Assembly (NCBI RefSeq): GCF_003334355.1
Contig: NZ_QOWP01000016.1
DNA length: 64,000 bases
Source of the DNA: Escherichia coli
GTDB taxonomy: Bacteria > Pseudomonadota > Gammaproteobacteria > Enterobacterales > Enterobacteriaceae
Direction: 5' to 3' (one strand)
Below the pieces are notes generated by a model. It saw only the letters and a program-made list of their open reading frames with translations, made no database searches and was not told where the DNA came from. Numbering within the stretch: the stretch's first letter is position 1; each line of letters begins with the position of its first letter. Positions 31,561-31,771 of the stretch are shown here, piece by piece. The position numbers and the translations under genes were made by a program.

Positions 31561-31591
31561 ATCGCCTCCCATTAACTATTGCCAGCTACAA

Positions 31592-31607
31592 GCAATAATT
31601 GTGCCAG
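31592..31607 (-). promoter_or_regulatory. Sigma54 (-24/-12) promoter for the hyp operon
   Basis: Minus strand reads TGGCACAATTATTGC with GG and GC spaced as in the sigma54 consensus TGGCAC-N5-TTGC. Confidence 0.7.
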
Positions 31608-31632
31608 TGTTGATTATCCCTGCGGTGAATAA

Positions 31633-31679
31633 TGTCGATGATGTCGAAATGACACGTCGACACGGCGACGAAATTCATC
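31633..31679. promoter_or_regulatory. Probable FhlA upstream activating sequence shared by the divergent hyc and hyp promoters
   Basis: Cluster of inverted GTCGA-containing repeats (TGTCGAAATGACACGTCGACA ... CGACGAAATTCAT) midway between the two sigma54 promoters; assignment to FhlA is from known biology, not measured here. Confidence 0.4.
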
Positions 31680-31718
31680 TTTAGCTTAAAAATCTCTTTA
31701 ATAACAATAAATTAAAAG

Positions 31719-31736
31719 TTGGCACAAAAAATGCTT
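31719..31736 (+). promoter_or_regulatory. Sigma54 (-24/-12) promoter for the hyc operon
   Basis: TTGGCACAAAAAATGCTT with GG and GC at the consensus spacing, about 40 bp upstream of hycA. Confidence 0.7.
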
Positions 31737-31771
31737 AAAGCTGGCATCTCTGTTAAACGGGTAACCTGACA

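Follow-up and report, generated by a model that had tools for sequence, protein, structure and literature searches.

The hypA-hycA intergenic region in the window

The window, the whole 64-kb stretch of Escherichia coli DNA that we analyzed (64,000 nucleotides), contains hypA and hycA transcribed away from each other across a 211 bp spacer, with fhlA, the gene for the activator, encoded in cis at the end of the hyp operon about 4 kb from that spacer. The genes and the spacer lie as follows.

31210..31560, minus strand: hypA coding sequence, ATG at 31560-31558; present in the open reading frame list, matched by NCBIfam HypA models over residues 1-116, and so named by RefSeq on an identical E. 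coli sequence
31561-31771: hypA-hycA intergenic region, a 211 bp spacer
31772..32233, plus strand: hycA coding sequence, ATG at 31772; NCBIfam HycA equivalog at 301 bits versus a cutoff of 180
25791..27869, minus strand: fhlA coding sequence; NCBIfam FhlA equivalog at 1548 bits versus a cutoff of 830, residues 1-692

HycA is an anti-activator of FhlA. Alignment to the known K-12 hycA-hypA region, which an earlier sequence-only reading of this DNA had proposed, showed every base from 31540 to 31800 to be identical to E. coli K-12 MG1655, with the same flanking genes. A 551-bp query around the spacer found a match in 5,426 of 5,426 complete E. coli genomes, its best match having at least 99% identity in 4,527 records and 95-99% identity in the other 900, and several genomes, E. 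coli C and WG5 among them, match a 24-kb piece of the window at 100% identity, so that the strain is a commensal-type E. coli with the reference version of the locus and may not be K-12 itself. In one complete genome, E. coli FDAARGOS_1288, an IS5 element (380-1360 of its locus, equivalent to about 31565 in the window) lies downstream of the hyp promoter and ahead of hypA, and so parts hypA from its sigma-54 promoter.

Because it is identical to K-12 base for base, the region is the ordinary E. coli formate-regulon control region, with a textbook architecture that is already known; formate-induced hydrogen production and the maturation of hydrogenases in enteric bacteria are under its control, and biohydrogen engineering makes use of it. 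The sequence is the K-12 reference sequence and descriptions of the architecture go back to about 1990, and the finding of this arrangement therefore adds nothing new. We provide three useful refinements over the sequence-only reading: the bounds of the conserved core, an IHF-like site, and a second cluster of FhlA-type repeats.

Divergent sigma-54 promoters

Each operon is preceded by a sigma-54 promoter, from which we predicted a transcription start.

31719..31736, plus strand: hyc sigma-54 promoter TTGGCACAAAAAATGCTT, 36 nt 5' of the hycA ATG, with TGGCAC-N6-TGC at 31720-31734
31591..31607, minus strand: hyp sigma-54 promoter CTGGCACAATTATTGCT, with its -24 GG and -12 GC
31746, plus strand: predicted hyc transcription start, 12 nt after the -12 GC and 26 nt before the hycA ATG
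31580, minus strand: predicted hyp transcription start, placed by geometry 12 nt past the -12 GC, with the hypA ATG 20 nt further on

Both -24/-12 elements of the divergent promoters lie where the sequence-only reading had placed them. The hyp TGGCAC-N6-TGC element (TGGCACAATTATTGC, 31592-31606, minus strand) stands upstream of the hypA ATG, and both promoters have GG and GC doublets at canonical spacing. In the longer TGGCAC-N5-TTGCW context, the hyp sequence TGGCACAATTATTGCT is an exact match and the hyc sequence TGGCACAAAAAATGCT shows one departure, an A for T before the GC. In the 64-kb window we counted five matches to TGGCAC-N6-TGC (1.04 expected; 0 of 100 shuffles reached five), and three of them are the known sigma-54 promoters of hyc, hyp and norV. 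Sigma-54 ChIP-seq in K-12 lists both 17-mers exactly, under peaks OS27 (hycA, TTGGCACAAAAAATGCT) and OS28 (hypA, CTGGCACAATTATTGCT), at distances to the start codons of 26 nt for hycA and 20 nt for hypA (PMC4591121), with which our predicted starts at 31746 and 31580 agree. Together with the K-12 identity, these ChIP-seq sites support the claim that the known formate-regulon architecture is intact in this strain. Genomic SELEX also places an RpoN holoenzyme site in the hypA-hycA spacer (PMC8743547), and the orthologous promoters of Salmonella are ChIP-chip sites listed as FhlA-dependent (PMC3844500).

Two further candidates were rejected. A TGGCAC-N6-TGC match inside hycA and directed toward hycB (TGGCACATCTACTGC, 31841-31855, plus strand) was not retained as a conserved promoter; the codons beneath it, His25 and Ile26, are conserved only 46% and 37%, and the motif does not appear in the sigma-54 ChIP-seq table (PMC4591121). 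A 27-nt inverted repeat, 81% complementary, joins the two promoters (31580-31606 and 31720-31746) and runs beyond their -24/-12 elements into GCTGGCA at both predicted starts, an extension that is not conserved outside Escherichia; we rejected this repeat as a separate feature, as it amounts to two promoters facing apart. Scans for sigma-70 promoters and terminators produced chance-level matches only, and Rfam returned nothing relevant.

A conserved repeat core between the promoters

Between the promoters, and extending to the hycA start codon, we delimited four further elements.

31632..31662: predicted proximal FhlA-type enhancer core (UAS-1) ATGTCGATGATGTCGAAATGACACGTCGACA, bounded by cross-genus conservation, with a near copy at 32284-32307
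31663..31679: right-hand extension CGGCGACGAAATTCATC, a candidate extra FhlA half-site, lineage-restricted
31702..31714, plus strand: IHF-like site TAACAATAAATTA, matching WATCAANNNNTTR at 12 of 13 positions, in the interval from UAS-1 to the hyc promoter
31747..31771, plus strand: conserved hycA 5' leader TCTCTGTTAAACGGGTAACCTGACA

Our comparison took in 80 hycA loci, drawn from about 20 Enterobacteriaceae genera, and aligned their 75 distinct upstream regions. Conservation is given as identity to the E. coli sequence, taken over the 68 rows from outside Escherichia, which come from related species and are not independent counts. Conservation of the two promoters and the core roughly equals that of coding DNA (hyp promoter 0.83, core at 31632-31662 0.80, hyc promoter 0.75), the IHF-like site at 31702-31714 reaches 0.65, and spacers fall to approximately 25% identity (0.28 for 31607-31631 and 0.24 for 31663-31679). 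The hycA leader at 31747-31771 is also conserved at the level of coding DNA (0.75). Single-base differences in E. coli O157:H7, E. coli IAI39 and E. albertii lie almost entirely outside 31633-31676, and the core is unchanged in E. coli O157 and IAI39.

The sequence-only reading had proposed an FhlA enhancer made of GTCGA-containing inverted repeats at 31633-31679. This cluster reads TGTCGATGATGTCGAAATGACACGTCGACACGGCGACGAAATTCATC, in agreement with the sequence quoted there, with GTCGA starting at 31634, 31643 and 31656 and GACGA at 31667. The description as inverted repeats did not hold, since the cluster consists mainly of short direct repeats, among which a repeat finder returned one of 9 nt (ATAATGTCG/ATGATGTCG) and one of 8 nt (GACACGTC/GACACGGC), and has only two inverted elements, TGTC-N5-GACA (31642-31654) and the palindrome GTCGAC (31656-31661). 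The proposed extent stood for 31632-31662 and failed for 31663-31679, whose low identity marks it as lineage-restricted; by the cross-genus alignment, the conserved non-coding element covers the left two-thirds of the cluster. Apart from Escherichia itself, only Salmonella and some Citrobacter retain the right third (GGCGACGAAATTCATC), in a GCG(A/T)CGAAA form, and this part resembles CGACACGGGTGTCGAATCCAT upstream of hyfA, a likeness equaled in score by 14 of 300 shuffles.

The density of repeat words carries no weight by itself. GTCGA/GACGA-type pentamers reach six per 50 bp in the cluster, the maximum for the window, but Markov shuffles have a mean maximum of 5.7 and routinely reach six, so that we do not count this density as evidence. 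We take the cluster as real because it is conserved across genera and has a near-duplicate 651 bp away, and these two observations support the earlier prediction of an FhlA-type enhancer element between the promoters. The 16-mer FhlA consensus CATTTCGTACGAAATG, as cited in a review (PMC4987338), has no match with three or fewer mismatches anywhere in the 64-kb window and is therefore unusable for placing sites here; the only partial matches are the half-site CGAAATG at 31645-31651 and CGAAATT at 31669-31675. Local alignments of the cluster to other upstream regions were marginal, with 13/300 shuffles scoring as high for hydN, 14/300 for hyfA and 66/300 for fdhF, and a search for ungapped k-mers common to the regions upstream of hyc, hydN, fdhF and hyfA found no FhlA motif, returning only an AT-rich IHF-like block shared with hydN.

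The IHF-like site has exact consensus matches in several other genera (for example, AATCAATGAATTA). Binding of IHF at the hyc region was reportedly shown by Hopper and colleagues in 1994, and 31702-31714 is its putative site. The hyc (31700-31724) and hydN (44030-44053) promoters share a near-identical AT-rich block, AATAACA(A/G)TAAATTAAAA, followed by TGGCA; this block contains an IHF-like site, and AATAACAGTAAATTAAAA within it is common to the hydN promoter. Such sharing suggests that promoters of the formate regulon have a module in common.

A second FhlA-type cluster between hycA and hycB

Downstream of hycA we found a second cluster of the same kind.

32284..32337: predicted distal FhlA-type cluster (UAS-2) TGTCGATGAGTGTCGAAAATGACA ... 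TTTTCGTCAAAAATGAC, in the hycA-hycB spacer

The hycA-hycB spacer reads GTGTCGATGAGTGTCGAAAATGACATTTCATCGGCATGTTTTCGTCAAAAATGACA, and the first 24 nt of the distal cluster are nearly a copy of 31633-31654; this near-duplicate, TGTCGATGAGTGTCGAAAATGACA, is followed by TTTTCGTCAAAAATGACA. The composite motif TGTCGATGA(N)TGTCGAAA(N)TGACA, with a length of 22-24 nt, has exactly two matches in the 64-kb window, one at 31633 and the other at 32284, against 0 expected. The two clusters are 651 bp apart in the same orientation and bracket hycA. The distal cluster is more strongly conserved across Enterobacteriaceae than the proximal cluster, with a relaxed form of the composite pattern present at the distal position in 76 of 84 loci and TTTCGTCAAAAATGAC essentially invariant. 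In 1994, Schlensog and colleagues reportedly mapped FhlA footprints to two places, the hyc-hyp spacer and the stretch from hycA to hycB, and assigned the second to hyp; the sequence matches this reported map.

A further enhancer inside hycA was considered and rejected; synonymous sites over codons 1-80 contain no constrained patch, and the FhlA-like words at 31921-31962 lie in the least constrained synonymous stretch (0.42). The enhancer core to annotate as broadly conserved is 31632-31662, and annotation or engineering of the locus should include 32284-32337 as well, as replacing or deleting hycA with its downstream spacer removes the distal cluster.

Spacing of clusters and promoters

Relative to the predicted hyc start, the proximal core lies at about -114 to -84, or approximately 100 bp upstream. 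Relative to the predicted hyp start it is much nearer, at -52 to -82, and no bend site intervenes. For the distal cluster, the corresponding positions are about -704 to -757 (hyp start) and about +538 to +591 (hyc start). Among 70 distinct sequences from about 20 genera, the hyp and hyc -24 elements show just two classes of spacing, one of 102-103 bp and one of 112-116 bp. These classes are roughly one helical turn apart, and the core stands at steps of about 11 bp from either promoter, a pattern that fits face-of-helix constraints on the arrangement, with the qualification that the species are related and the counts not independent.

Proposed mechanism and assignment of the clusters

FhlA is named as the activator of hyc and hyp (PMC4591121, PMC3844500, PMC4987338). 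We think it very probable that the region works as a formate-regulon switch run by FhlA and sigma-54, in which the proximal core acts on hyc, and hyp is activated through the distal cluster, the proximal cluster or both. Sigma-54 RNA polymerase would wait in closed complexes on the two back-to-back -24/-12 promoters, the hyc promoter facing hycA and the hydrogenase-3 structural genes and the hyp promoter facing hypA, the maturation genes and fhlA. Formate-activated FhlA would bind the TGTCGA/GACA-type repeats, oligomerize, and open the promoters through ATP and DNA looping. For hyc, the enhancer would be the core at 31632-31662, with an IHF-like bend at 31702-31714 helping to bring it to the promoter, and FhlA would reach hyp from either cluster or from the two together, the distal one at 32284-32337 being approximately 700 bp upstream. 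We infer the assignment of clusters to promoters, and hold with high confidence the part in which the proximal core and IHF-like site would serve hyc.

That the proximal cluster is shared by both promoters, as the sequence-only reading had supposed, is an assumption, and it is unproven because a second and better conserved FhlA-type cluster lies in the hycA-hycB spacer; hyp may instead use that distal cluster. Under a strictly shared arrangement, the proximal cluster at 31633-31679 alone would activate both promoters and the hycA-hycB cluster would have another job, such as downstream stimulation of hyc or an RNA-level effect on the translation of hycB. The position of the cluster between both promoters is consistent with this arrangement, as are the two spacing classes, since a difference of about one helical turn is expected if both promoters face one activator. 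Counted from the hyp start, the right-hand sequence GACGAAATT stands at about -87 to -95, which is typical for an enhancer, and the lack of enhancer-like constraint at synonymous sites in hycA codons 1-80 also favors it. However, that well-placed right-hand element is not conserved beyond close relatives (0.24), yet the hyp promoter is, and the core that is conserved sits 52-82 bp from the hyp start without a bend site, which is close for sigma-54 looping. The presence of a second FhlA-type cluster with the same word order and greater conservation also argues against a single shared enhancer, as does the reported assignment of the distal site to hyp. We consider activation of both promoters by the proximal cluster alone to be possible but distinctly the less likely course, at perhaps one chance in a few.

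A more speculative extension of the FhlA switch is that the two clusters form a paired enhancer, with an FhlA oligomer that bridges both of them, loops out hycA, and faces both closed complexes. We regard this as doubtful. If true, the 102-103 and 112-116 bp spacing would reflect both promoters facing one activator assembly, and the arrangement would go beyond the textbook rule of one upstream activating sequence per promoter.

The proximal cluster could also be the target of a regulator other than FhlA, such as NorR, whose sites are of the GT-N7-AC type, or ModE. The word GTCGAAATGAC does fit the GT-N7-AC core of NorR sites, and the similar words GTCAAAATGAC and GTCGATATGAC form the norV enhancer at 49850-49905 (PMC2831303). 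However, NorR needs three sites arranged as they are at norV (PMC2831303), the literature names FhlA as the hyc and hyp activator (PMC4591121, PMC3844500, PMC4987338), fhlA is encoded in cis, and related words occur upstream of the FhlA-dependent hydN, hyfA and fdhF, all of which make this reading very improbable. Lastly, the notion that the cluster is a chance run of CG-containing words, with the promoters using an enhancer elsewhere, would accommodate the shuffles that match the pentamer density and the failure of the published consensus CATTTCGTACGAAATG to find a match, but is effectively refuted by the core identity of 0.80 across about 20 genera (versus about 0.25 in the flanks) and by the 22-nt duplicate with 0 expected.

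Comparison with known systems

Within the window, a close parallel is the hydN-hypF promoter region (43950-44065), where TGTCAT/TGTCGATGACA repeats lie about 55-90 bp upstream of the TGGCA -24 element and, as at hyc, a near-identical AT-rich block (AATAACAGTAAATTAAAA) directly precedes the promoter. Unlike hyc-hyp, the hydN-hypF region is unidirectional, its repeat words have the form TGTC-N3-GACA, and its -12 element is weaker (TGTGAA).

The norR-norVW region (about 49780-49905) resembles hyc in having a GAF-domain sigma-54 activator, inverted repeats of the GT-N7-AC type and a TGGCAC-N6-TGC promoter, but differs from hyc-hyp in having three NorR sites and one sigma-54 promoter, and in responding to nitric oxide rather than formate. 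The norV words GTCAAAATGAC, GTCGATATGAC and GTCAAATTGAC (49850-49905) and the hyc word GTCGAAATGAC (31643-31653) all fit GT-N7-AC. Both NorR and FhlA are sigma-54 activators of the GAF-domain type, and the DNA sites of the two look related.

Outside the window, zraP and zraSR provide the textbook example of an enhancer with a possible role in both directions. Leonhartsberger and colleagues reportedly described in 2001 divergent sigma-54 promoters for them, with intergenic ZraR sites. As at hyc-hyp, two sigma-54 promoters stand back to back with activator sites between them. The zraP and zraSR promoters are listed among those in PMC3844500. The two systems differ in activator and signal, and hyc-hyp adds a distal cluster inside the hyc operon.
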